This document shows, in pieces, positions 32,213 to 53,093 of a stretch of 64,000 bases of DNA. The position numbers and the translations under genes are program-made. The stretch's first letter is position 1, and every line of letters starts with the position of its first letter. The DNA comes from Clostridiales bacterium. GTDB lineage: Bacteria > Bacillota > Dehalobacteriia > UBA7702. The notes below the pieces were generated by a model that saw only the letters and a list, made by a program, of their open reading frames with translations, had not been told where the DNA came from and ran no database searches. Location of the stretch: the NCBI GenBank assembly GCA_040776805.1, contig JAXGZS010000004.1, positions 151,215 through 215,214 of the forward strand, read 5' to 3'.

Positions 32213-35200
32213 TTAGTGAGGCCAAACGATGTTCGGCTTCAATGCCGTCCAGGTTTCGGTTCCGTCTTCGTTGCGTTCGTAATAGTGGCTGTTCGTCGCT
32301 TCCTGCATTGCCAGGTAATACCATTTCGTCGTATCCATGTTATCGGGCCAGACGATCATACCTAAGAGCAGCGCTTCCGGAGAAGCAGGAATACGATTCA
32401 ACACATTATTGATCAACGTAACCGCTTCAGCACGGGTGATGTAGAGATCGGGCCGGAACGAATGGTCTTCATAGCCTTTAACCCAACCGTTGTTGGCGGC
32501 AATATTGATTTCGTCTTCCGCCCAATGCCCTGCAATATCCGTAAAATCGGTGGGCGTTGTATCACCGCTGCCGTCAAACCTGGCGGCGATGGCGGCAAAT
32601 TCCGCTCTGGTGATGTATCCGTTGGGATGGAACGTATTATCCGGATAACCCTTTACAATATTCAGTGCACGCAGAGTCAGTACTGCTGTGCTGTACCAAG
32701 CTCCATCGGGGACATCGCTGAAAGAATTGGAGCTTGTAGAATAGGCATCGCTGGCTTTTTCTGTCAGCAAGCGGTAGAAGATCGTCGCAACCTCGGCACG
32801 GGTGATATTTCTTCCCGGTCCAACGTTCCCGTCCGGATAACCGATGATATACGCGAAGTGATCTTCATCGTTGAGTAAGGGGTTGATGGTAAAATCAGCG
32901 GGAATGACAGTAACATCGTAGTTGCTGTTTTCGGTGTAGCCCGCGGTGATGACTCCGGTGTAGGTACCGGCGTCTTCCGCCGAGTTCGTGCGGTAATAGA
33001 AAACAGTACCAAGATCACCTGCATTGACCAAACCGTCAATGGTACCGCCAAAGCTCGGATCGGCTTCGCCGACGAATTTATCGGCATCGTTTACGGTAAT
33101 CGTCACAGGTTTCATCGTTACAATCAAGGTGCCGCTGTTCACAGTAACATATGGGTACGTACCTTCCGTAGTGATATCATAATCAGCAAGGTTAACGGCG
33201 AAACCGACGTTGGTGATGCTGCCGGTAACGGTGACGGTGATTTCATCGCCGTTCGGTAAGAAGTATTTGCCTTCCCCGTCCGCCGTAACCGGCGCGCCGT
33301 CACAAGTAATGGTGAAACCATCGTCGCTGTGGGAAGCGCCGTCATAGGTCCAGCTGTTGCTGTTTGCCGTAATCACGATGATGTTATCGTTTTCGATGAT
33401 GATCGGCATGGAGATCGTGAAGTCACCGGGAACGATTGTAACATCGTAATTGGTGTTGGCGGTATAGTCGGCGGTCAGCACATCGTCATAGGTGCCGACG
33501 GCTTCGTCACTGTTGGTACGGGAATAGCTAACGGTGCCCAAATCATCACCGTTCACGAGGCCGTTCACGGTACCGCTGAAAGTAGGATCAGGATCACCCA
33601 CCGTTTTCCCTGCGTCATTTACGGTAATCGTAACCGCTTTTGCCGTCACGGTCAGGACACCGTCGGTGGCGGTAACGTCGCTGTAGTTTCCTTCATTTTC
33701 CAGGGTGTAAGCGACGCTGTTGGCCGCAGTACCGACGTCGGTGATGCTGCCGGTAACGGTGACGGTAATTTCATCACCGGTGGGTAAGAAGTATTTGCCG
33801 TCCCCGTCCGCCGTGACTGCCGCGCCGTCGTAGGTAACGGTGAAACCGTCGTCGCTGTGGGAAGCGCCGTCATAGATCCAGCTGTTGCTGTTTGCCGTAA
33901 TCACGATGGGGTTTTCATCGGCAGTGATCGTGAAGTCTCCGGGGACAACCGTTACATCGTAATTGGTGTTGGCGGTATAGTCGGCGGTCAGTACGTCGTC
34001 ATAGGTGCCGACGGCTTCGTCGCTGTTGGTGCGGGAATAGCTGACGGTGCCCAAATCATCACTGTTCACGAGACCGTCCACAGTACCGCTGAAGGCGGGA
34101 TCCGCCGTGCCGTACACTTTATCCGCGTCGTTTACGGTAATCGTAACTTCTTTTGCCGTCACGGTCAGGACACCGTCGGTGGCGGTAACGTCGCTGTAGT
34201 TTCCTTCATTTTCCAGGGTGTAAGCGACGCTGTTGGTCGCAGTACCGACGTCGGTGATGCTGCCGGTAACGGTGACGGTGATTTCATCACCGGTGGGTAA
34301 GAAGTATTTGCCGTCCCCGTCCGCCGTGACTGCCGCGCCGTCGTAGGTAACGGTGAAACCGTCGTCGCTGTGGGAAGCGCCGTCATAGATCCAGCTGTTG
34401 CTGTTTGCCGTAATCACGATGGGGTTTTCATCGGCAGTGATCGTGAAGTCTCCGGGGACAACCGTTACATCGTAATTGGTGTTGGCGGTATAGTCGGCGG
34501 TCAGTACGTCGTCATAGGTGCCGACGGCTTCGTCGCTGTTGGTGCGGGAATAGCTGACGGTGCCCAAATCATCACCGTTCACGAGGCCGTCCACGGTACC
34601 GCTGAAAGTAGGATCAGGATCACCCACCGTTTTCCCTGCGTCATTTACCGTAATCGTAACTTCTTTTGCCGTCACGGTCAGGACACCGTCGGTGGCGGTA
34701 ACGCCGCTGTAGTTTCCTTCATTTTCCAGGGTGTAAGCGACGCTGTTGGCCGCAGTACCGACGTCGGTGATGCTGCCGGTAACGGTGACGGTGATTTCAT
34801 CACCGGTGGGTAAGAAGTATTTGCCGTCCCCGTCCGCCGTGACTGCCGCGCCGTCGTAGGTAACGGTGAAACCGTCGTCGCTGTGGGAAGCGCCGTCATA
34901 GATCCAGCTGTTGCTGTTTGCCGTAATCACGATGGGGTTTTCATCGGCAGTGATCGTGAAGTCTCCGGGGACAACCGTTACATCGTAATTGGTGTTGGCG
35001 GTATAGTCGGCGGTCAGTACGTCGTCATAGGTGCCGACGGCTTCGTCGCTGTTGGTGCGGGAATAGCTGACGGTGCCCAAATCATCACCGTTCACGAGGC
35101 CGTCCACGGTACCGCTGAAGGCGGGATCCGCCGTGCCGTACACTTTATCCGCGTCGTTTACCGTAATCGTAACCGCTTTTGCCGTCACGGTCAGGACACC

Positions 35201-35701
35201 GTCGGTGGCGGTAACGTCGCTGTAGTTTCCTTCATTTTCCAGGGTGTAAGCGACGCTGTTGGTCGCAGTACCGACGTCGGTGATGCTGCCGGTAACGGTG
35301 ACGGTGATTTCATCACCGGTGGGTAAGAAGTATTTTCCGTCCCCGTCCGCCGTAACCGCCGCGCCGTCGTAGGTAACGGTGAAACCGTCGTCGCTGTGGG
35401 AAGCGCCGTCATAGATCCAGCTGTTGCTGTTTGCCGTAATCACGATGGGGTTTTCATCGGCAGTGATCGTGAAGTCTCCGGGGACAACCGTTACATCGTA
35501 ATTGGTGTTGGCGGTATAGTCGGCGGTCAGCACGTCGTCATAGGTGCCGACGGCTTCGTCGCTGTTGGTGCGGGAATAGCTGACGGTGCCCAAATCATCA
35601 CTGTTCACGAGGCCGTCCACGGTACCGCTGAAGGCGGGATCCGCTGTGCCGTACACTTTATCCGCGTCGTTTACGGTAATCGTAACTTCTTTTGCCGTCA
35701 C
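32213..35701 (-). CDS. C-terminal 1162-aa intact portion of the giant SLH-domain surface protein (5.5 copies of a 171-aa repeat plus three SLH repeats)
   Basis: The repeat unit TAKEVTITVNDADKVYGTADPAFSGTVDGLVNxDDLGTVSYSRTNSDEAVGTYDDVLTADYTANTNYDVTVVPGDFTIT... looks like an MBG-type adhesin-associated domain. The C-terminus carries NITRAEVATIFYRLL and ITRAEFAAIAARF SLH motifs. Confidence 0.75.
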   Translation of the reverse strand: MTAKEVTITVNDADKVYGTADPAFSGTVDGLVNSDDLGTVSYSRTNSDEAVGTYDDVLTADYTANTNYDVTVVPGDFTITADENPIVITANSNSWIYDGASHSDDGFTVTYDGAAVTADGDGKYFLPTGDEITVTVTGSITDVGTATNSVAYTLENEGNYSDVTATDGVLTVTAKAVTITVNDADKVYGTADPAFSGTVDGLVNGDDLGTVSYSRTNSDEAVGTYDDVLTADYTANTNYDVTVVPGDFTITADENPIVITANSNSWIYDGASHSDDGFTVTYDGAAVTADGDGKYFLPTGDEITVTVTGSITDVGTAANSVAYTLENEGNYSGVTATDGVLTVTAKEVTITVNDAGKTVGDPDPTFSGTVDGLVNGDDLGTVSYSRTNSDEAVGTYDDVLTADYTANTNYDVTVVPGDFTITADENPIVITANSNSWIYDGASHSDDGFTVTYDGAAVTADGDGKYFLPTGDEITVTVTGSITDVGTATNSVAYTLENEGNYSDVTATDGVLTVTAKEVTITVNDADKVYGTADPAFSGTVDGLVNSDDLGTVSYSRTNSDEAVGTYDDVLTADYTANTNYDVTVVPGDFTITADENPIVITANSNSWIYDGASHSDDGFTVTYDGAAVTADGDGKYFLPTGDEITVTVTGSITDVGTAANSVAYTLENEGNYSDVTATDGVLTVTAKAVTITVNDAGKTVGDPDPTFSGTVNGLVNGDDLGTVSYSRTNSDEAVGTYDDVLTADYTANTNYDVTIVPGDFTISMPIIIENDNIIVITANSNSWTYDGASHSDDGFTITCDGAPVTADGEGKYFLPNGDEITVTVTGSITNVGFAVNLADYDITTEGTYPYVTVNSGTLIVTMKPVTITVNDADKFVGEADPSFGGTIDGLVNAGDLGTVFYYRTNSAEDAGTYTGVITAGYTENSNYDVTVIPADFTINPLLNDEDHFAYIIGYPDGNVGPGRNITRAEVATIFYRLLTEKASDAYSTSSNSFSDVPDGAWYSTAVLTLRALNIVKGYPDNTFHPNGYITRAEFAAIAARFDGSGDTTPTDFTDIAGHWAEDEINIAANNGWVKGYEDHSFRPDLYITRAEAVTLINNVLNRIPASPEALLLGMIVWPDNMDTTKWYYLAMQEATNSHYYERNEDGTETWTALKPNIVWPH

Positions 35702-36725
35702 GGTCAGGACACCGTCGGTGGCGGTAACGTCGCTGTAGTTTCCTTCATTTTCCAGGGTGTAAGCGACGCTGTTCGCCGCAGTACCGACGTCGGTGATGCT
35801 GCCGGTAACGGTGACGGTGATTTCATCACGGTGGGTAAGAAGTATTTGCCGTCCCCGTCCGCCGTGACTGCCGCGCCGTCGTAGGTAACGGTGAAACCGT
35901 CGTCGCTGTGGGAAGCGCCGTCATAGATCCAGCTGTTGCTGTTTGCCGTAATCACGATGGGGTTTTCATCGGCAGTGATCGTGAAGTCTCCGGGACAACC
36001 GTTACATCGTAATTGGTGTTGGCGGTATAGTCGGCGGTCAGTACGTCGTCATAGGTGCCGACGGCTCTGTCGCTGTTGGTGCGGGAATAGCTGACGGTGC
36101 CCAAATCATCACTGTTCACGAGACCGTCCACAGTACCGCTGAAGGCGGGATCCGCCGTGCCGTACACTTTATCCGCGTCGTTTACGGTAATCGTAACTTC
36201 TTTTGCCGTCACGGTCAGGACACCGTCGGTGGCGGTAACGTCGCTGTAGTTTCCTTCATTTTCCAGGGTGTAAGCGACGCTGTTGGTCGCAGTACCGACG
36301 TCGGTGATGCTGCCGGTAACGGTGACGGTGATTTCATCACCGGTGGGTAAGAGTATTTGCCGTCCCCGTCCGCCGTGACTGCCGCGCCGTCGTAGGTAAC
36401 GGTGAAACCGTCGTCGCTGTGGGAAGCGCCGTCATAGATCCAGCTGTTGCTGTTTGCCGTAATCACGATGGGGTTTTCATCGGCAGTGATCGTGAAGTCT
36501 CCGGGACAACCGTTACATCGTAATTGGTGTTGGCGGTATAGTCGGCGGTCAGTACGTCGTCATAGGTGCCGACGGCTTCGTCGCTGTTGGTGCGGGAATA
36601 GCTGACGGTGCCCAAATCATCACCGTTCACGAGGCCGTCCACGGTACCGCTGAAGGCGGGATCCGCCGTGCCGTACACTTTATCCGCGTCGTTTACCGTA
36701 ATCGTAACCGCTTTTTTTTTGATAT
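32890..36725 (-). repeat. 513-bp tandem repeat array, about 7 near-identical units plus one degenerate unit, in coding sequence
   Basis: The periodicity shows in the ORF track (33652, 34165, 34678, 35191 and so on). Units are above 95% identical at the nucleotide level. Confidence 0.9.
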
Positions 36726-38129
36726 CAAGAGTCCCCGGCACATAGTTAATATTGATATGACTTGTAACGTCCGTGGTACCATTCTTCACCGTTGCAGTTC
36801 CCTGAAACGTGCCATCATAGCTGCTTACATCGGTGCCTTCCGCCGTATAAGTAATTCCCGTAACAGTGTAGCCTGCGGGTAAACCCTCGACATCATAGTC
36901 CGTCAAGCTTTGCTGGCTTCCGTTATAGATTAAGCTGGAACTGTCTCCGATAATCACAATGGATTTACTGTAAGTATATTTAACGTCAATGGTGGATGTC
37001 GTATCGGCGGCGGTAACGGTAAACGTCACGGTGCCGTCGGCAGCCACCTGATAATCTGTGATGCCGGTAACGGTAACACCCGTGTAAGACCAGGTGCCTT
37101 CCGGTACCGTAGGTCCTGTGGTTGCGGGAGTAAAGGTGTAATCACCTTCCGGTAATCCGCTCAAGGTCGTTGGTACTGACTGGGCGTAATCGTATTGATT
37201 GGCAATGTCTCCATAAGCATGAGTAACATCAATGCCGCCGGATACGGTATAAGGTGTTGAGCTAAGACCAAAACCGCCGTCACCCATGAATAATATAACG
37301 GAAAGCGTAATCACGGTAGCATGGTCCATCGGGGCTTTGATGACAATCCAATGTTGATCATTATGAGGAATGGTTGTCCCCGCGTTAAGCACACGGACAT
37401 CGTTTTCATAAATCTGTAAATTTTTCCCGGTTTCAATGTCATAAACATCTGCTTCAATGTTGCCGATGATCTCGGTACCGTTAACAAGGACAGATTTCAA
37501 ATTGAGATCATACACTTGTTTTGCGGCATCAAGCGCGATGTATGTACTGCCGTTATACTGCCAGATGTACATTGCCTCGTTCTTGCCGTTGGTAGAGTGA
37601 CCATCAAGTTCATAGACATTGGTCTCCGTCAAAAATATACCTTCACCGGGATCCATAATCACTTCAGCTTTTGCGGGTAAAGATGAGAAAGTAAGTAGTA
37701 ATGTCATCACCAAAAGAATCGCGAAACTCGATTTCTTCATTTTGCTCCCCTCCTTCGTTTTTTTCAGCAAAATGGTTTCTCTTTGTCCATTGGGAAACTT
37801 TGCGGTTCTTTCATTTTTGCTTTTGTCGCCGGCATCTTTCTTGCCTTGTTGTACCATTTCCCCCTCACCGTTTTTACAGTGTTTTATGGGTTTTCCTGCG
37901 TCCGGGAAAAGTGTCATCTTTTTGTGAAACAATCGGCCATTCCTTTCGATAGGCTTGCGGTAAAATGATGACCACCCCCTTTTTTACGATATGCAAAGTT
38001 TCTATTATTATCATCATAATAATTGATAATAACGTTTTGCGCATGGCCCATAGGGTATCAATCCTTAAAAAAAAACAAACCGGATAAAAAAGTATCACGG
38101 CTTGTAAAATATTATGATGTACCGGTCGT

Positions 38130-38747
38130 TTAATAGAGTGGGTTAATCCATCCGTTTGAAATCATATAGAAGGCCAGCTCAACGGAATCGTTAAACCCTG
38201 TTTTCTTTAACATGTTTGCCACATGACGCTTCACAGTCATCTCACTGATATAAAGCTCCTTGGCAATCTCTTTGCGGGATTTATGCTTACATAACAGCTG
38301 GAGAACTTCCATTTCTCTGTCCGTCAGCGGCACCTCGCCTTGGGGCATGGGTATCGTCCGCGGTTTAGGGAAATAGGTCTGGCCATTCATTACCTTTAGA
38401 ACGATCTCTTTGAAAAAATCCAGGCTCTTACTCTTATCAATAAACGCGTCGGCGCCAGCTTCTCTTGCGCGCCGGGCGTAGGAAATTTCATCGAATCCCG
38501 ACATCACGATTATTTTCAAAGCTGGAAAGCGCTGGCGCAAATGCTTCGTCGCATCCAGACCAGAAGCGTTGGCCTCCGTACAGATATCAAGAAGGACAAG
38601 CTCCGGATGTTGTTGCTGACAGAACGCCTCGGCATAAGAGGCATTGGGGATTTCTCCGACAACGGAGAAATCCGGCATTTCACTAAACATTTTTATAAAA
38701 GAATCCCGTACGATTTTATGGTCGTCTACAATTAATACTTTGATCAA
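38130..38747 (-). CDS. response regulator, NarL/LuxR family (REC plus HTH)
   Basis: MIKVLIVDDHKIVRDS ... C-terminal LuxR-type helix-turn-helix (EMEVLQLLCKHKSRKEIAKELYISEMTVKRHVANMLKK). Confidence 0.85.
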   Translation of the reverse strand: MIKVLIVDDHKIVRDSFIKMFSEMPDFSVVGEIPNASYAEAFCQQQHPELVLLDICTEANASGLDATKHLRQRFPALKIIVMSGFDEISYARRAREAGADAFIDKSKSLDFFKEIVLKVMNGQTYFPKPRTIPMPQGEVPLTDREMEVLQLLCKHKSRKEIAKELYISEMTVKRHVANMLKKTGFNDSVELAFYMISNGWINPLY

Positions 38748-40012
38748 ATCAATTCATCTCCCTTGGGAATTCGGGCTACGAGGGTGAAGTGAGGAGTCGT
38801 TGTTACGGTCAATTCGCCGCCGAGCAACTGAAGTTTTCGTCGCATTTCCGTAATACCGCCCCCTTCCGTAATTTCACCGGTAGAGGGAATACCGTTATCG
38901 GTAATAACCAGCTTGATATCGGTATTCGTATGCAGACATTGGACTTCGATTTCATTGGCAAAACCATGTTTTACGGCGTTATTGACCGCTTCCCGGATAA
39001 TATTCACAAGCAGTTTCGGATGGGAGCATTGACTCAACATGGCGGCGGGAAAACGAATCGTTACGCCGATGCTTTGAAATGCTTTGGCAAGAGCCTGCAG
39101 CTTTTCTACCGGTAAAATATCCTGGCCTTCCGCCCTGATTTCAGCGAACAAATCCATGGAAAATTGCGCCAATAAGTCCTCCTCCGGCAAACTGTTTTCT
39201 CTGAGGGCCCGCAACAATAAGGTAATCCGTTGACCCATCAGGTCGTGAATTTTTGTTTTGACCCGAATCAGCTCTTCATCACGGCGGATGGCAGCAAGAT
39301 CGTTCAGCGTAACCTTTAGTTTCTCACTGCTTTTTTGGAGCGCTTCGTTTTTTTCTTGCAATGCCTTCGTCAGCTGCCAGCGCTTTGTCACATCAATAGC
39401 GGTGATCTGAAAGTAGTCCTTGCCCTGGAGCATAACGGAGCTTTTATAAAACATCCAGGCAGTGCCATCAGGCAAACCGTAAACCATTTGATTTTCGATA
39501 AAGTTCGTTTCGATTCCCGGCAATACCTTTTCTTCTTTCAACAAATTGTGAAAATGTTCTCCGTCGCGCCAAATTTTGCCGGTCAATGATAACATCAAAT
39601 GTCTCATTTTATTGTTCAGGAGAATGATATTGTCATTTGTTTCACAGAAAAGCACGCCGGCGGGAAGCGCGTCAATGGCCTCTTTGATGGACCAAACGGA
39701 AATCGTTTCCCTTAACGCTTCATGACCTTTCCTTAAAAAATAAATTGATCGAGTCAAAAAGTAACCCAGGGAAACGGCATAAAAAACAGAAAAAAGAGGT
39801 GCGGGAAGCGTTTCCAAAATCGGCAGCGTCAACAAAGCCATAAAAGGAATCGGGAACACTCTTAGATTTTCCTGACGGAAACCAAGATAAACAGCGGTGA
39901 CGGTTAAAAGGGCAAAGACGACATAGCGGCAGACGGTGAGGGTAAAAGACGGTATATAGAAATCGCTTTGAACCTGCGGAATCAACAGAACGTCGATGAC
40001 GGTTTGTAGCAA
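38744..40012 (-). CDS. sensor histidine kinase, HisKA_3 (NarX/DegS-type) with an N-terminal membrane domain and a PAS-like region
   Basis: H-box KIHDLMGQRITLL, N-box REAVNNAVKHGFA and a G-rich ATP lid (GGGITEMRRKLQLLGGEL). About 4 transmembrane helices at the N-terminus. Confidence 0.8.
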   Translation of the reverse strand: MLQTVIDVLLIPQVQSDFYIPSFTLTVCRYVVFALLTVTAVYLGFRQENLRVFPIPFMALLTLPILETLPAPLFSVFYAVSLGYFLTRSIYFLRKGHEALRETISVWSIKEAIDALPAGVLFCETNDNIILLNNKMRHLMLSLTGKIWRDGEHFHNLLKEEKVLPGIETNFIENQMVYGLPDGTAWMFYKSSVMLQGKDYFQITAIDVTKRWQLTKALQEKNEALQKSSEKLKVTLNDLAAIRRDEELIRVKTKIHDLMGQRITLLLRALRENSLPEEDLLAQFSMDLFAEIRAEGQDILPVEKLQALAKAFQSIGVTIRFPAAMLSQCSHPKLLVNIIREAVNNAVKHGFANEIEVQCLHTNTDIKLVITDNGIPSTGEITEGGGITEMRRKLQLLGGELTVTTTPHFTLVARIPKGDELI

Positions 40013-40163
40013 GATGAGTAACTCAAGGACATTTCGCCGCAGCTTTGGATAACCTGTACGGCCGTACCATTGATATAACTGGAAGGAAGCGGTTTAAAAA
40101 ATCACGCAGAGAAAGGCCGCAAAAAATAAAATGGCCCGCAACGTTCCGGCATATGCATAAAGT

Positions 40164-41897
40164 TCAGTCATCGGCCGCACCTCCTTTGGGAAAATGCAGG
40201 GAGATGCTCGTGGCCACATCCAAATCCTTGGTGGTAACCGTGCCGCCGGCCGCAGAAATGGTCGCAAAGAGGGCTGGTTCCGGGTGGAATACCAAACCCT
40301 TCAAAAACAACATCAGTTTCAATATCAGCTTACCATCTTCTTCCAGGATCTGCGCCAATAAGGTCTGGCAGTCGTTCTTCAGCGCCCAGGCAAGGACTGC
40401 ATAATAAAAGTCATAGATCAAAGTACTGTAGCGAACATCGAAAAGGCCCTGCAAATTGCAACTATTCATCGCTTTAATGCCTGCATACTGCCCAAACTCA
40501 GCCAATTCGTCAAGATAAATCACCAATTCATCCGCTTCCATGGTCTTGGATTCCTCTTCCCAAAAAAACAGATTACAACGGCGTTTGATATAACAGGCCA
40601 ATAAGGCTAATTTCGCAGAGGCTTGGGGAGCGGTCTCGTCTTTGGGAAACGTACGGATCATGGCGGACATTTCTTTGAGCTTTTCATTGATTTCTTCTTC
40701 CAGCTTATAGAAAAGCGTCGTTCTCGCCTCGAGAGCGGCGAGTCGGCCTTCACATTCACCTTTCTTTTTCAACATCGCGTTGACCGCTTTCAATCTTGCG
40801 ATGGAGTCTTGCGATTCCTTTTGGAGACGGTTAATCGCGCCAATATCCGCATGCCAAACTACGTAACCGCATCTGATCGGCGCGGCGGAAACCATGAGGT
40901 TTTCATCAAGGGGAAAGGACGTGGCGATGTTGTTGATGATCTTTTGCCGCATTTCATCCGGCAGCCGCTTCACACCGCTGGCCGCAAGCACCAGCTGCCC
41001 CGTTCGGTCAATGATACTCATTTGCAGCGGAGATCTGGCAAACAACTTTTCATACTTTGTATTATTCGGAATAAGGCCGGACTGCAGGCAAGATTCATAG
41101 AAGAACATCACCAACACGCTTGCTACAAAGACGAAATCAAATACGTGGAAAAAAGACAAATGCGCACTATAACCGATGGTATAGGCGATAATCAAGATCA
41201 GCATCAACAATGGACGCACAATAAACAATTTGCCTGCGCTTTTTTTGTATCTGACAAGTAAAGAAATCATGGCAACGACGATCATAAGCAGCGTAAAGAT
41301 GCAGATAAAAGCATAACCGGGTCCGTAACGATAATGACTCGACCAGCCGTCAAGGGAATCAAACTGAAATACCAGCATATGATAATCGTTCGTCAAAACA
41401 AGGGCAAGAAGAAAAAGATTCATCAGAACAAAAATCCACCAAATACCGGGAGGATGCTCTTTTTCAGGGGTATCAATGCAAAGTACTAACCACAAAAACA
41501 ACAGCGGTAACATAAAGATAAAAAAGAAATCAAAATACCAGGAATAACGAAGCATCGTAGTGCTTTCAAAAAGGTAGGAGTTACATTGGTGCAGAATAAT
41601 CCAACCGAGTAAGATAAACTCATTCAACAGGATGATTTTCTCCGGACTCTTCATGTTGCTGCGGTGCAGCATGGAACCGGACCAGAGAATGAGGATGATC
41701 ATGAAAAGCAAAGCCAGAAAAAGGTCGGTCATATGCCTTTGCTGTAAAGCAATTTGATCGATGATAGCCGAAGCTGCGACAGAAACAGCGGGCTTACCCA
41801 CAGATGCCGTATTTTCATCAAGAGTGAAATAAGCAAATAAAAAGAGTGCGCAAACGACAATAAAAACCAAAGCAGAGAACACTTTCGGGTTTTTCAT
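40164..41897 (-). CDS. large polytopic membrane protein with a degenerate histidine-kinase-like C-terminal domain that lacks the phospho-acceptor His (pseudokinase paralogue of the adjacent HK)
   Basis: ATG at 41897 after AAAGGAG. About 10 transmembrane helices, then a region alignable to the neighbouring kinase. Where the kinase has IHDLMGQ, this protein has INEKLKEM. The C-terminus keeps a G-box-like AAGGTVTTKDLDVATSISLHFP. Confidence 0.5.
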   Translation of the reverse strand: MKNPKVFSALVFIVVCALFLFAYFTLDENTASVGKPAVSVAASAIIDQIALQQRHMTDLFLALLFMIILILWSGSMLHRSNMKSPEKIILLNEFILLGWIILHQCNSYLFESTTMLRYSWYFDFFFIFMLPLLFLWLVLCIDTPEKEHPPGIWWIFVLMNLFLLALVLTNDYHMLVFQFDSLDGWSSHYRYGPGYAFICIFTLLMIVVAMISLLVRYKKSAGKLFIVRPLLMLILIIAYTIGYSAHLSFFHVFDFVFVASVLVMFFYESCLQSGLIPNNTKYEKLFARSPLQMSIIDRTGQLVLAASGVKRLPDEMRQKIINNIATSFPLDENLMVSAAPIRCGYVVWHADIGAINRLQKESQDSIARLKAVNAMLKKKGECEGRLAALEARTTLFYKLEEEINEKLKEMSAMIRTFPKDETAPQASAKLALLACYIKRRCNLFFWEEESKTMEADELVIYLDELAEFGQYAGIKAMNSCNLQGLFDVRYSTLIYDFYYAVLAWALKNDCQTLLAQILEEDGKLILKLMLFLKGLVFHPEPALFATISAAGGTVTTKDLDVATSISLHFPKGGAADD

Positions 41898-42194
41898 GAT
41901 TTTCACACTCCTTTCAGGCATAATGCCCCAGGATGATTTTAATCGGTTTACAGAAAATCAAACAGAAATGGCAAAAACTTTGCCCCGGATTTACCAAGGC
42001 TTTCTTTCAGATGTGCTTTCTTTTCCCCTATTCTACCACGATCCTGCTTTTCCTGTCCAGCTTCGTATGGCTGCCCCGCCTATTTCATTGCCGTTGCTCC
42101 TTTTTTGCGATGATTGCCCTCAAAAACAAGCGCCAATCGATTCCATCATCGCCAGCCCCTGTGACATACTCTCTTCTTACTCATGATCAAAGAG

Positions 42195-42396: not shown

Positions 42397-43131
42397 TTAA
42401 TCGAACTCCACCTTTGCTTGGTCGTCAAAGGGATTCGTTCTTATCGCAAAGGAGAACAGATAAGAATATTCCTTTTTCAGGTGCCGCATATAAATAAGCC
42501 ATTCCAATAACAACCACTCATATACTCTCGCCGTGTCACCTTTGATATGGAGGATATCGTTTTCAGAGAGTTGATACAGATCGTCGCGGTTGGTAAGCTC
42601 TTCTTGCAGGTGAAAAAGGGACATCATAAGTTCAGAAAAAAACTCGTGTTCTAAAAGAGTAGGATTCTCAATGATTTTCAGCAAAAACTCTCTATGTTTC
42701 CCTAAAAATTCTCTGAGAAAAACGAGGTCGATATTTTTAAGATCAGGATTGTATCCGTTCACTATATTGATCGCGTTTTCAAAATCTCTATGTACCCAGT
42801 GATTGTTAAGGATCAGTTTTTCCTTGATCCCATTAATATTTATATCACTTTTCGTCATGTTAGCCAGTAGTTGATTTCCTATTTCGCTGAAAAATACGCC
42901 GATCAGCATATTGATTTTTCTTAAAGTATTTTTCTTTTCTCTTTCTTCAATGATTTTATGAAAAATGAGACTTACAAATACGATTTCAACAGGCAAAAAG
43001 GCAATGTCGCCAAGGAAAAAGATCAGGACATGGTGTAGATCTTTAAAAATCAAATAATGCAAAGAGTACAAAACAGCAGATAATAAAAGGAGTATGATCG
43101 CCATGACTGTTATCTCGCGTTTTATTTTCAT
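42397..43131 (-). CDS. hypothetical membrane-anchored protein, AT-rich (about 35% GC against about 50% in the flanks)
   Basis: 244 aa with two N-terminal transmembrane helices and a soluble alpha-helical domain. No recognisable motif. It is compositionally atypical and lies next to the tRNA cluster. Confidence 0.5.
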   Translation of the reverse strand: MKIKREITVMAIILLLLSAVLYSLHYLIFKDLHHVLIFFLGDIAFLPVEIVFVSLIFHKIIEEREKKNTLRKINMLIGVFFSEIGNQLLANMTKSDININGIKEKLILNNHWVHRDFENAINIVNGYNPDLKNIDLVFLREFLGKHREFLLKIIENPTLLEHEFFSELMMSLFHLQEELTNRDDLYQLSENDILHIKGDTARVYEWLLLEWLIYMRHLKKEYSYLFSFAIRTNPFDDQAKVEFD

Positions 43132-43871: not shown

Positions 43872-44357
43872 TTACAAACTTTTTGGCTGGTGAGCATAGG
43901 ATTTTATTTCCATCGCTCCCGTACTGCTGTAAAACCACACGGTTCTGCCGTAATTGGAACCGGTATCCTCCGCAATAATCGGTACCTTCAAGGATTTGAG
44001 CACATTCTTGGTGGATTCCACATTGCGATTGCCAATATTACCGATTTCGTTATCTCCTGACACCTGGAACATACTGGCCCCCCCGGCGATTTTCGCAACC
44101 AGCCGGATCTTATTGCAACCCAGCTTGATCATTTCGTGATACATCATCGGGATACAGATGTCCGCGTACTTATATTTGTTATCGGCGGCGTTTTTTTGAT
44201 TGTCGCAGGGCAGCATAATGTGGGCAAGTCCCGCTATTTTCAAGAAAGAGTCATACATGCAAATACCGACACATGAGCCAAGGGCGTAGGTTACCAAAAC
44301 ATCGGGAGCGCTTGCGACTTTCATGTCCGATATACCAACGGTGATAACATTGTTCAT
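43872..44357 (-). CDS. cheD: chemoreceptor glutamine deamidase CheD
   Basis: VTYALGSCVGICMYD catalytic Cys region. Length 161 aa. Confidence 0.85.
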   Translation of the reverse strand: MNNVITVGISDMKVASAPDVLVTYALGSCVGICMYDSFLKIAGLAHIMLPCDNQKNAADNKYKYADICIPMMYHEMIKLGCNKIRLVAKIAGGASMFQVSGDNEIGNIGNRNVESTKNVLKSLKVPIIAEDTGSNYGRTVWFYSSTGAMEIKSYAHQPKSL

Positions 44358-44968
44358 AATGTGATGCCCAACCTCTGCATAATGATTTCTAATGATGTGA
44401 TATTCGGCACCAACAGCATATTCGCGGTAATGGTTTGCTCCTCACTTAAAAAATTATCCTGAATAAAGATGATATGGTCGGAAACGCTGGCCATTTCGAT
44501 GGCCGGCACACTCATCAGCGCCCCCACCATGTCCACACAAAGAGCCGGAACCGAGGTTTTGATGTTCAGTTTTGAAAGGGCGGCGATGGAATTGATATAA
44601 GAGGAAATCAATATATTGCCGATCTCCGAGAATGCCGACTGCTCCATTTCCGACAGGTGATCGCATTCCGCTTCACAGGGGCAGCCAATCCCTTTGAGGA
44701 TCACCGGGGCATAGGAGCATTGAATTAAAAACATCATAAGCCCCTTAATGTCCCCTTCTAATTTGCTTAGGACACAGATACTAATATTCTCAGGCCCGCC
44801 AAGGGACGCAACAGCCTGATTCACATCGACAATATTCACCTTGGGGACATCCATGGCAACGGTATCGCCAAGGATACTTGCCAGCGCTGTCGCCGCGTTG
44901 CCCGAACCGATATTGCCGATTTCTTTCAATACATCAATATGGATTTCATTCAGCTGGTTTAAGTTCAT
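44354..44968 (-). CDS. cheC: CheY-P phosphatase CheC
   Basis: ATG at 44968 (GGGAG Shine-Dalgarno). Two ExxN-type CheC repeats (EIGNIGSGNAATALA and EIGNILISSYINSIA). Confidence 0.8.
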   Translation of the reverse strand: MNLNQLNEIHIDVLKEIGNIGSGNAATALASILGDTVAMDVPKVNIVDVNQAVASLGGPENISICVLSKLEGDIKGLMMFLIQCSYAPVILKGIGCPCEAECDHLSEMEQSAFSEIGNILISSYINSIAALSKLNIKTSVPALCVDMVGALMSVPAIEMASVSDHIIFIQDNFLSEEQTITANMLLVPNITSLEIIMQRLGITL

Positions 44969-45009
44969 GCTGGTCTCCCTCATTGTTATGCTGACGCCTT
45001 GGCTGAAAA

Positions 45010-45723
45010 TCACCTCAGGTTGTTGACGGTCTGCATGATTTCATCGGAAATTTGGATCATTCTCGTATTGAGCTGAAAAGCCTTTTGCAATTGAATCACC
45101 TCCACCATTTCATCGGCAATATCCACCGCGGAAGATTCAAGATATCCCGTTTGAATCCGGGGATTCTCAACCGCCGTGGGATTCCCCGAGGTTGCCGTGG
45201 CGCTGAATAAACAGTTTCCGTTGACTACCAGACCGTCGACATTGGCAAAGGTAAATACGCCGATTTTTGCGGCAATTTCCCCTTGATCGTATTGATTGGG
45301 GTCAACTTCAATGGGATTCCCCGCCGCGTCCACAACGTTCCCCCCTCCGGCATAAGCCAGATAGAATTTCCCATCGGTCTGCTGGGATAGGCTAAAATTC
45401 CCGTTTTTGGTATATTGGATCCCATCCTTCGTCATCACCCCGAAGAAGGATCTGGCATCGAAAACCGCAAAATCGAGGTCGCGGCCTGTGGCACAGGGCG
45501 TGCCTTGCGTATGCAAAACATCGGTTTTGCTGACTTTTGCGCCGTGACCGGCCTTTAGCTCTTGATTATCTGTGCGCAAGTTGCTATACAGCAGATCCTC
45601 AAAAGTCACTCTCTGGGCTTTATATCCGTTGGTGGAAACATTTGCGATATTGTTGGCCGCAACGTCCAATCCACGCTGGCTCTGAATGGCTCCGGTTGCC
45701 CCGGTATAAAACGAAGTAATCAC
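45010..45723 (-). CDS. flgG: flagellar basal-body rod protein (FlgG/FlgF family)
   Basis: The conserved N-terminus of rod proteins, GLDVAANNIANVSTNGYK, and C-terminus LNTRMIQISDEIMQTVNNL. Confidence 0.75.
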   Translation of the reverse strand: MITSFYTGATGAIQSQRGLDVAANNIANVSTNGYKAQRVTFEDLLYSNLRTDNQELKAGHGAKVSKTDVLHTQGTPCATGRDLDFAVFDARSFFGVMTKDGIQYTKNGNFSLSQQTDGKFYLAYAGGGNVVDAAGNPIEVDPNQYDQGEIAAKIGVFTFANVDGLVVNGNCLFSATATSGNPTAVENPRIQTGYLESSAVDIADEMVEVIQLQKAFQLNTRMIQISDEIMQTVNNLR

Positions 45724-45735
45724 AGCATTCCCTCC

Positions 45736-46467
45736 TTATACTTGACCAATTTGGGTCGTGGCTTTTTCCAAAACCGAATCATACATTTTTAACGCTTGGG
45801 AGCAGGACTGCAATTCCCGCTGAGTCGCAAGGGCGTTGGTCATTTCCTCGGCGACGTCCACGTTAGAACCTTCCAGGGTCTGCCATTGAATCTTGGCGTC
45901 GATCAATTGTCCGCCGCCGTTGGCCGTATAATAACCGCTGGTGGCTTCGGTCAAGGTATTGTAATCCGCGAAGTTATAGATCGCCAAACCGTCGATCAAC
46001 CGGTTGCCGACATAAATATTTCCTTGTTCATCCGCGGTGAAATCATCGGTTCCCACCCTAATGGGGCCCTTTGTCCCCATGACGCGCCCTACGCCCTCCT
46101 GCACCAGGTAACCGTCGGCGTCGATATTAAAATCACCTTTTCTCGTATAAACCAAGCCGTTTTGCCCCTGGATGGCAAAAAATCCTTCTCCTTGAATCGC
46201 AAAATCCAAGTTACGGCCGGTACTTTCCATAGACCCCTGGGTATGAATGGTCACCGTGTCTCCTACGGTTCTCCCCAGAGCCATGGTACCGATGGACGTG
46301 GTTTGCCCATCCACACGCTGAATCAGCATTTCACCAAAGGTCTCGCTAACAACCGTCTGTTTTTTATACCCCTGAGTCTTGGCATTGGTGATGTTGTTCC
46401 CGATGCTGTTTAAGGTCTTGTTTTGGGTCATCATCCCCGAAGCCAACTGATAAAAACCTCTCACCAT
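45736..46467 (-). CDS. flagellar basal-body rod protein (FlgF/FlgG family)
   Basis: LNSIGNNITNAKTQGYK N-terminus and ELQSCSQALKMYDSVLEKA C-terminus. Confidence 0.75.
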   Translation of the reverse strand: MVRGFYQLASGMMTQNKTLNSIGNNITNAKTQGYKKQTVVSETFGEMLIQRVDGQTTSIGTMALGRTVGDTVTIHTQGSMESTGRNLDFAIQGEGFFAIQGQNGLVYTRKGDFNIDADGYLVQEGVGRVMGTKGPIRVGTDDFTADEQGNIYVGNRLIDGLAIYNFADYNTLTEATSGYYTANGGGQLIDAKIQWQTLEGSNVDVAEEMTNALATQRELQSCSQALKMYDSVLEKATTQIGQV

Positions 46468-52712: not shown

Positions 52713-53078
52713 TTAACCCAAAATTTTCGCAACCGTTTTCATGATTCTTTCCGGCTTGAAGGGTTTTACGATAAAATCTTCCGCCCCAAATTTCAGCGCT
52801 TCCAAAACCATATTTTCCTGTCCCATCGCGGAACACATCACGATTTTACAATCGTGATTGATTTCTTTGATCGCCTTCAGCGCCTCAAGCCCATCCATAT
52901 TCGGCATCGTTATGTCCAATAACGTCAAATCCGGTTTTTCCTGCTGATACAACGCAACGGCCTCTTCCCCGTCCTTTGCTTCAATAATGTCGGTATACCC
53001 GTTTTGCTGCAAAGTATTTTTGATCATCATTCTCATAAAAGCCGCGTCATCCACCAACATAATTTTCTTACTCATCAT
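52713..53078 (-). CDS. cheY: chemotaxis response regulator CheY
   Basis: KIMLVDDAAFMR...DLTLLDITMPNMDG...IVMCSAMG...GAEDFIVKPF. Length 121 aa. Confidence 0.9.
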   Translation of the reverse strand: MMSKKIMLVDDAAFMRMMIKNTLQQNGYTDIIEAKDGEEAVALYQQEKPDLTLLDITMPNMDGLEALKAIKEINHDCKIVMCSAMGQENMVLEALKFGAEDFIVKPFKPERIMKTVAKILG

Positions 53079-53093
53079 TGTCCTCCCATTTCG

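Follow-up and report, generated by a model that had tools for sequence, protein, structure and literature searches.

A predicted receptor pseudokinase encoded in operon order with a histidine kinase and a LuxR-type regulator in a clostridial genome

Bacterial two-component systems are commonly taken to comprise a single sensor kinase and a single regulator. What, then, is the role of an additional membrane protein that resembles a kinase but is encoded just upstream of such a pair? This question is raised by a 64,000-nt stretch of a Clostridiales bacterium genome (contig JAXGZS010000004.1, positions 151,215 to 215,214; hereafter the window, to which coordinates refer unless a related locus is named), whose list of open reading frames (ORFs) contains three co-directional minus-strand genes arranged head to tail. 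Gene A (40164-41897) encodes the putative receptor pseudokinase; gene B (38744-40171) is the orthologous frame, 475 codons long and interrupted at codon 26, of a membrane histidine kinase of the HisKA_3 type; and gene C (38130-38747), which shares its first 4 bases with the end of B, encodes a 205-aa response regulator composed of a receiver domain and a LuxR/GerE helix-turn-helix. The original prediction, made from the DNA letters and their ORF list, had located the three genes correctly. We consider it probable that A gates B, with output through C, and that the three genes represent a widespread, uncharacterized signaling module. All three are under purifying selection, the ratio of nonsynonymous to synonymous substitution rates (dN/dS) relative to the closest related locus (L080) being 0.16 for A (83% identical), 0.18 for B and 0.06 for C. 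No second copy of A or B lies within the window.

Gene A starts at the ATG at 41897 and its 577-aa product is identical to NCBI protein P0001; an alternative ATG at 41921 would give 585 aa, and residues are numbered here from the latter. Among Pfam models A matches HisKA_7TM (PF16927) alone (35.5 bits over residues 69-275; cut-off 28.6), and it has no match in NCBIfam. This match, together with hydropathy and the helices of an AlphaFold2 (AF2) model, delimits a seven-helix membrane domain (residues 67-281; 41079-41723), which is preceded by an N-terminal anchor helix (residues 14-32) and an external linker of ~30 aa. Hydropathy and the AF2 model are concordant in giving eight helices (1+7), fewer than the ten or so first counted. 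A PAS-like domain follows (residues 287-359; 40845-41063), recognized by AF2 secondary structure and Foldseek and ending in an 'ADIG' junction whose family form is 'EDI[ST]'. Next come a helical hairpin of DHp (dimerization and histidine-phosphotransfer) type (residues 361-457; 40551-40841), formed by AF2 helices 361-423 (63 residues) and 431-457, and a degenerate domain resembling the catalytic and ATP-binding (CA) domain of kinases (residues 458-585; 40167-40550).

The full-length AF2 model (predicted local distance difference test, pLDDT, 79.5) places the membrane part, the PAS-like domain, the long helix, the hairpin helix and an alpha/beta domain in succession, and Foldseek matches it in the PDB to the YF1 LOV-kinase chimera, a PAS-kinase fusion (4gcz, E 1.5e-9 over 371 columns), to DesK (8e-8), and also to ChpT (4fmt) and DivL (4q20). 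When residues 458-585 were modeled alone from a 22-sequence alignment, a confident model was obtained (pLDDT 90.7, predicted template-modeling score, pTM, 0.86), whose best match is the DesK ATP-binding domain (3ehg; TM 0.74/0.76, root-mean-square deviation 2.4 Å, E 3.8e-7, 122 columns). The best 50 matches of this model are all kinase CA domains, including those of DesK, PhoQ, CpxA, HK853 and VanS at TM 0.6-0.76 and E ~1e-7 to 1e-6. In the AF2 models and Foldseek matches A therefore has both a DHp hairpin and a Bergerat-fold CA domain, i.e., modeling shows its cytoplasmic part to have the fold of a histidine kinase of the DesK type, comprising PAS, DHp and CA.

The relation of A to the neighboring kinase is detected at the level of families. 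BLASTP finds no significant similarity between A and B, so the string-level alignment from which the first reading started cannot be justified by pairwise comparison. Profile-profile alignment of the two families with hhalign gave E 1.3e-4 over the hairpin and CA region in one run and E 5.7e-4 over 269 colinear columns, from the PAS domain to the C-terminus, in another. This alignment pairs the 'ADIG' junction of A with 'IDVT' in B, as had been proposed by eye. What stands of the proposed correspondence is thus a weak, colinear profile match at ~14-17% identity, and the description of A as a paralogue of B was overstated: the two are remote homologues, not recent paralogues. An alternative explanation is that the kinase-likeness of A is an artefact of modeling and that A is an unrelated seven-helix membrane protein lying beside a two-component system. 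The negative BLASTP result would suit it, as would the finding that the C-terminal 300 residues have no covering match in Pfam, NCBIfam or PDB sequences, the last of which yielded only coiled-coil noise when searched with A by phmmer. We regard this explanation as scarcely credible, given that the confident model of the CA-like domain matches only kinase CA domains (TM ~0.7), that A and B align colinearly from PAS to CA, and that the gene order is kept in ~60 divergent genomes (see below).

Although A shares the kinase fold, it is predicted to be a pseudokinase that cannot autophosphorylate. The only histidines in its cytoplasmic part are residues 357, 546 and 576; none occurs between 358 and 545, and both helices of the hairpin are accordingly His-free. 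In an alignment of 73 family sequences, from which all column counts for A are taken, no column of helix 361-423 has His in more than ~10% of relatives. The counterpart of the phospho-acceptor His of kinases is ambiguous: it would be E408 if spaced equally with respect to both the PAS junction and the hairpin loop, I411 by ungapped extension of the hhalign alignment, and N412 in the original prediction. None of the three is His, so the loss of the acceptor is borne out, whereas its specific replacement by Asn is not. Column 408 is D/E in 66/73 sequences and column 410 in 69/73, column 411 is I/M and column 412 is E or A; an acidic motif, L-[DE]-x-[DE]-[IM], thus occupies residues 407-411, the site of the kinase H-box. 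It is a speculation that the acidic residue at the likeliest former His position acts as a phospho-mimic.

The ATP site is likewise degenerate, as first proposed. The N-box Asn of B (N345), a Mg-ATP ligand, is paired by hhalign with W512 of A (40386-40388), a column that holds Trp in 49/73 relatives, Leu in 12/73 and Asn in 1/73. The G1 Asp column is Pro in 52/73 members of the A family and Leu in the window copy, and the G2 'EGGGI' of B lies opposite a gap in A. In agreement with these losses, no Pfam HisKA or HATPase model matches any of 24 A-family members. Neither a conserved His in the dimerization helix nor intact N, G1 and G2 boxes are found across the 73 relatives, which upholds the view of A as non-catalytic; since the catalytic residues are absent family-wide, the pseudokinase state is a property of the family and not the result of local decay. 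Other features of A are strictly kept. The second hairpin helix carries the invariant motif KRRCNLFF (residues 446-453; 40563-40586), with K, R, R and C at all 72 of 72 residues found at those columns, within the longer stretch CYIKRRCNLFF; DELAE and Y503-D504 are also invariant.

B, by comparison, has the features expected of a working kinase. Its phospho-acceptor His (39245-39247) is H256 of the 422-aa ORF, within the motif KIHDLMGQ, and among 73 B relatives this His is present in 73, D257 in 68, G260 in 71 and Q261 in 66. The N-box residues E341, N345 and H349 and the GGG of the G2 box are conserved in the same set. B scores 29.2 bits against Pfam HATPase_c (cut-off 26.4); it has no match to Pfam HisKA_3 (PF07730) even at E values up to 1, but PF07730 does occur, together with PF02518, in the next-closest proteins that the B profile retrieves. 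Among PDB sequences B matches DevS/DosT and DesK, the latter over residues 225-417 (E 2.5e-4), and PDB and NCBIfam matches taken together comprise DesK, DevS, UhpB and NarQ. Its initial description as a HisKA_3 kinase holds for the HDxxGQ signature, though not for the Pfam model of that name. On these residues, the kinase encoded by the B frame has an intact H-box and ATP site and is predicted to be competent. The C product, first described as a LuxR-type regulator, is an ordinary regulator of the NarL/LuxR type with receiver and GerE domains (Response_reg, 71 bits; GerE, 57.3 bits; NarL/UhpA-type matches in NCBIfam), and it has D8/D9, the phospho-acceptor D54, S83 and K105.

Is the association of these genes peculiar to this genome? 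Searched against 1.84 billion representative proteins, the A profile retrieves 2,958 clusters, defined at 50% identity, at E <= 1e-3, of which 1,676 remain at E <= 1e-30. The typical relative is ~810-820 aa long, the extra ~260 residues, which follow a lipoprotein-type signal peptide, forming a periplasmic domain; this domain matches SBP_bac_6 in 11 of 24 members examined, and HisKA_7TM is matched in 18 of the 24. The A proteins of the window and of the closest relative (P0002, 83% identical) have a short linker in its place, and such short forms make up roughly 1 in 10 of the best 150 matches. A scan of one genome per species, using KRRCNLFF as search pattern, identified 72 loci, mostly in Oscillospiraceae, Christensenellales, Lachnospiraceae and other Clostridia, with a few in Anaerolineae, Granulicatella and Johnsonella and one in a metagenome-assembled genome (MAG) labeled Dysgonamonadaceae. 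Of the 62 loci with sufficient sequence downstream to be evaluated, 61 have B directly after A, and 56 of the 57 evaluable for C have C after B; strict distance thresholds had given 60/62 and 54/57, the misses at L065, L016 and L075 being artefacts of those thresholds. Six loci retrieved by exact protein match all have the order A-B-C as well; it persists where A is only 23% identical and spans Clostridia, Anaerolineae and Lactobacillales. The three reading frames usually overlap across loci, which fits co-translation. The near-universal presence of both genes at orthologous loci, the overlapping frames and the dead catalytic sites of A all favor the accessory-sensor arrangement put forward in the original prediction.

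Additional genes accompany the module in many relatives; the window has none of those encoding the first two products described here and the Band_7_1 proteins. Two extra genes lie upstream of A in about half of the related loci (e.g., L007:2970-5986, L077:2719-4611, L070:1937-3508 and ~36 others), which encode an SBP_bac_8 solute-binding lipoprotein of ~454 aa and a ~509-aa membrane protein that has an external domain and, at its C-terminus, a GerE domain; the latter would be a membrane-bound one-component regulator. Downstream of C, ~30 loci carry a gene for a Band_7_1 (SPFH-type) protein with zinc-ribbon motifs (L001:12685-14796; L003:12710-14866; L020:10159-11598); DUF4428 often comes next, and in some cases TM2 or TPM_phosphatase genes. 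These Band_7_1 genes are a candidate target operon with a membrane-stress flavor. In 36 loci (e.g., L021:1960-2481) the module has, upstream or downstream of it, a gene for a conserved small protein of ~129 aa, which Pfam does not match and which by eye looks like a stand-alone receiver-like domain.

A mechanism can be proposed in which A serves as the signal-input subunit, most relatives sensing through the periplasmic solute-binding-like domain. A and B would form a membrane complex through their membrane helices, their DHp hairpins or both, and A would set the balance of B between kinase and phosphatase activity toward C, which would then control transcription. We infer the physical contact between A and B, and the direction of control, from synteny and by analogy with two precedents, RocA-CovS and FasB-FasC. 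RocA of Streptococcus pyogenes is a multi-helix membrane protein with a DHp-like region and a degenerate CA domain but no kinase function, which binds CovS (CsrS) through its membrane helices and raises phosphorylation of the regulator (PMC7028121; PMC6635533). For an action of A on B, RocA-CovS(CsrS)/CovR is functionally the closest model. In domain make-up the two differ: RocA has six predicted helices and neither a PAS nor a periplasmic binding domain (PMC7028121), whereas A has 1+7 helices and a PAS-like domain. RocA also keeps a dispensable His in its DHp region, unlike the His-free hairpin of A. Furthermore, rocA is not known to lie beside covRS, and CovR belongs to the OmpR-type regulators, whereas A, B and C overlap in one operon and C is of the LuxR type.

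The second precedent, the FasB-FasC-FasA system of S. pyogenes, consists of two adjacent kinase-like membrane proteins and a regulator encoded in one operon; FasB and FasC pair mutually instead of self-associating, and a pseudokinase role has been proposed for one of them (PMC12675982). In that system the proposed pseudokinase, FasC, retains a functional His246 and its partner supplies the ATPase, whereas here B has both and A has no hairpin His. The output promoter of the Fas system has a ComE-like FasA-binding site instead of a LuxR-type one, and the Fas proteins have no periplasmic binding domain. B and C themselves resemble DesK-DesR, LiaS-LiaR, UhpB-UhpA and NarX-NarL in the HDxxGQ H-box, the DesK-like CA domain and the regulator composed of receiver and GerE domains, and the CA-like domain of A is also structurally closest to that of DesK. 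Unlike kinases of the HisKA_3 type, however, A has none of the catalytic features, and B itself falls below the Pfam HisKA_3 model. The LiaF-LiaS-LiaR and UhpC-UhpB-UhpA systems each include a third membrane protein, a sensor or modulator that is not a kinase; LiaF (DUF4097-type) and UhpC (a transporter homologue) do not have a kinase fold, whereas A does.

DivL of Caulobacter is like A in having a kinase fold in which the acceptor His is replaced and in regulating the pathway of another kinase instead of being one, although its membrane and sensor architecture is different. DivL has a near-complete ATP-binding domain and a Tyr at the His position; it senses phosphorylated DivK, controls CckA and is not known to be operon-linked to its partner. 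This example suggests an alternative in which A acts on the regulator, its dead DHp and CA domains binding C or phosphorylated C as a scaffold, sink or reader in the manner of DivL and DivK. The DHp-like hairpin, with its invariant KRRCNLFF, is indeed the most conserved cytoplasmic part of A, and DHp domains are the usual docking surface of regulators; DivL (4q20) and ChpT (4fmt) are among the structural matches of A, and the DivL precedent is on record (PMC4211667). Present data do not distinguish action on C from kinase gating. We nevertheless hold this alternative to be rather unlikely, as a membrane complex is the simpler expectation for two membrane proteins co-translated from overlapping genes, and the nearest precedent in function, RocA, acts by way of the kinase (PMC7028121).

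Several observations weigh against gating of B by A. Synteny argues for functional linkage but does not specify a mechanism, and the hhalign probabilities for the match between the two families are modest (54% and 30%). A hidden Markov model of 47 A-family cytoplasmic domains, searched against PDB sequences, returned no kinase and only coiled-coil noise. In a termite-gut Oscillospiraceae MAG (L053, 5122-7491) a 789-aa A is followed by neither B nor C, the downstream genes being on the other strand; this is the only such locus among the reference loci. The extra sensor genes found upstream of A in other loci may mean that the circuit extends beyond three parts. Lastly, residue 444, directly before KRRC, is His in 38/73 relatives and Tyr in 33/73, and members with His at this position may have an unorthodox phosphoryl role. 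The corresponding alternative is that A takes part in phosphotransfer through His/Tyr 444 after being phosphorylated in trans by the ATPase of B, much as has been proposed for FasB and FasC. Phosphotransfer proteins with a dead CA domain do exist, for example Spo0B and also ChpT, which is among the Foldseek matches of A. In the Fas system, moreover, the kinase domain of one partner is dispensable and its His is phosphorylated (PMC12675982). In the alignments, however, residue 444 lies on the second hairpin helix and not at the His position of kinases or of Spo0B and ChpT, and, with Tyr there in the window copy and in almost half of the family, it cannot be a general acceptor; B, for its part, has its own conserved His in 73/73 relatives. 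We judge such chemistry to be very unlikely, and both this role and docking of the regulator are ranked below kinase gating.

The preferred reading, gating of B by A, may extend to a broader proposal, which is put forward tentatively and is on balance doubtful. A might represent a large and so far unrecognized class of receptor pseudokinases, present chiefly in Clostridia but in Anaerolineae too, in which ligand sensing, by the periplasmic solute-binding-like domain and the seven helices, and catalysis are split between two kinase-fold membrane proteins that form an obligate pair. In this proposal the KRRCNLFF helix and the acidic residue at the former His position might constitute a new interface that mimics or reads the phosphorylated DHp domain of the partner. 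The idea of a pseudokinase partner is itself already known. By contrast, there appears to be no description of the A family, of its architecture or of its obligate linkage in one operon with a kinase of the HisKA_3 type and a regulator of the LuxR type: literature searches for HisKA_7TM, for HisKA_3 with pseudokinase and for pseudo-histidine kinase returned no description of the family, HisKA_7TM being mentioned only in census papers, and no curated family model was found for the cytoplasmic part. That architecture, as modeled, would consist of a solute-binding-like domain, seven helices, a PAS domain, a His-less DHp hairpin and a lid-less CA domain.

The worked-out pseudokinase partners are few (RocA, DivL and FasC among them), each in a single pathogen or model species, whereas the A-B-C trio is hard-wired in one operon in dozens of genomes of gut and environmental anaerobes and is represented by thousands of sequence clusters. 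If gating holds, these operons would offer an abundant natural system for the control of a live kinase by a dead kinase fold, and would explain why the kinase B encoded in them has no obvious sensor domain of its own. They would also provide hundreds of paired sequences for mapping the kinase-pseudokinase interface by coevolution.

Whether the module still operates in the genome at hand is a separate question, which is raised by the 5' end of B. Orthologues of B are ~475-490 aa long and start overlapping the end of A. In the window the orthologous frame likewise opens at the ATG at 40169-40171, within 'ATGACTGA' at the stop of A, and reads MTELYAYAGTLRAILFFAAFLCVIF, followed by TAA (40094-40096, codon 26; 'FLCVIF*TASFQ') and then onward in the same frame. 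The closest B relative (P0177, from L080/L081; 82% identical, 475 aa) reads FLCVIFQTASFQ, with CAA (Gln) at codon 26, and Gln also occupies this column in five more distant orthologues. The difference at codon 26 is a CAA-to-TAA substitution. Two other accounts of the stop were considered and rejected: an indel error in the T-run, because the frame is identical before and after the stop, and recoding of TAA as Gln, because we know of no bacterial genetic code that reassigns TAA. The NCBI annotation restarts the product at a TTG and gives it 422 aa (P0176), which corresponds to the longest uninterrupted B ORF (38744-40012) and is without the first of ~5 membrane helices. B had at first been treated as intact; in fact the nonsense codon removes that first helix from the annotated form. 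The low dN/dS relative to the related locus implies that the stop is either recent or an error, and B of the window is either broken, truncated or mis-sequenced.

These findings open a further possibility, that the module is defunct in this genome, B being a fresh pseudogene and the short A a relic; no signaling would then occur at this locus, irrespective of the family elsewhere. The TAA stands in place of a conserved Gln, the sole restart is a TTG that drops a membrane helix, A is without the periplasmic domain present in ~90% of its relatives, and the adjoining gene for a large surface protein is also frameshifted. Any inactivation must be recent, however, as dN/dS is 0.16-0.18 for A and B. 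Moreover, the short A is common to the 83%-identical relative with an intact B, which indicates that the short form is maintained; a single base change may reflect a sequencing or assembly error; and the NCBI annotation does call a 422-aa B product. Loss of function here is a serious possibility, if one falling somewhat short of an even chance, and the local module is perhaps reduced or disabled. Genome annotation should avoid the name histidine kinase for A and should flag B of the window as interrupted.

The surroundings of the three genes bear in part on these points. A sequence resembling a promoter (TGGACA and TAGAAT separated by 18 nt, with TG upstream of the latter; 42030-42059, minus strand) lies ~110-130 bases upstream of A and scores 10/12 in a consensus scan; such sites are no more numerous in the region than expected from shuffled sequence, which makes it weak evidence. 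Directly downstream of C, 32213-37932 (minus strand) encodes a very large surface protein with repeats of ~171 aa (513 nt) and a C-terminal SLH-like region. The gene is split into five consecutive ORFs (36463-37932, 36215-36466, 35952-36212, 35704-35955 and 32213-35701) by frameshifts within the repeat units. Either the gene is decaying or the repeats were misassembled, and on either reading its state bears on the trust to be placed in the TAA of B.

Upstream of A, 42397-43131 (minus strand) encodes a 244-aa protein that by eye has hydrophobic stretches at its start and has no match in Pfam or NCBIfam; the related locus L080 has another gene at this place. Just upstream of the module, 43872-46467 (minus strand) contains chemotaxis and flagellar genes, by eye like CheD, CheC and a flagellar rod protein of the FlgG type. 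Farther away, a minus-strand ORF at 52716-53093 encodes a stand-alone receiver domain that by eye resembles a CheY-type protein.

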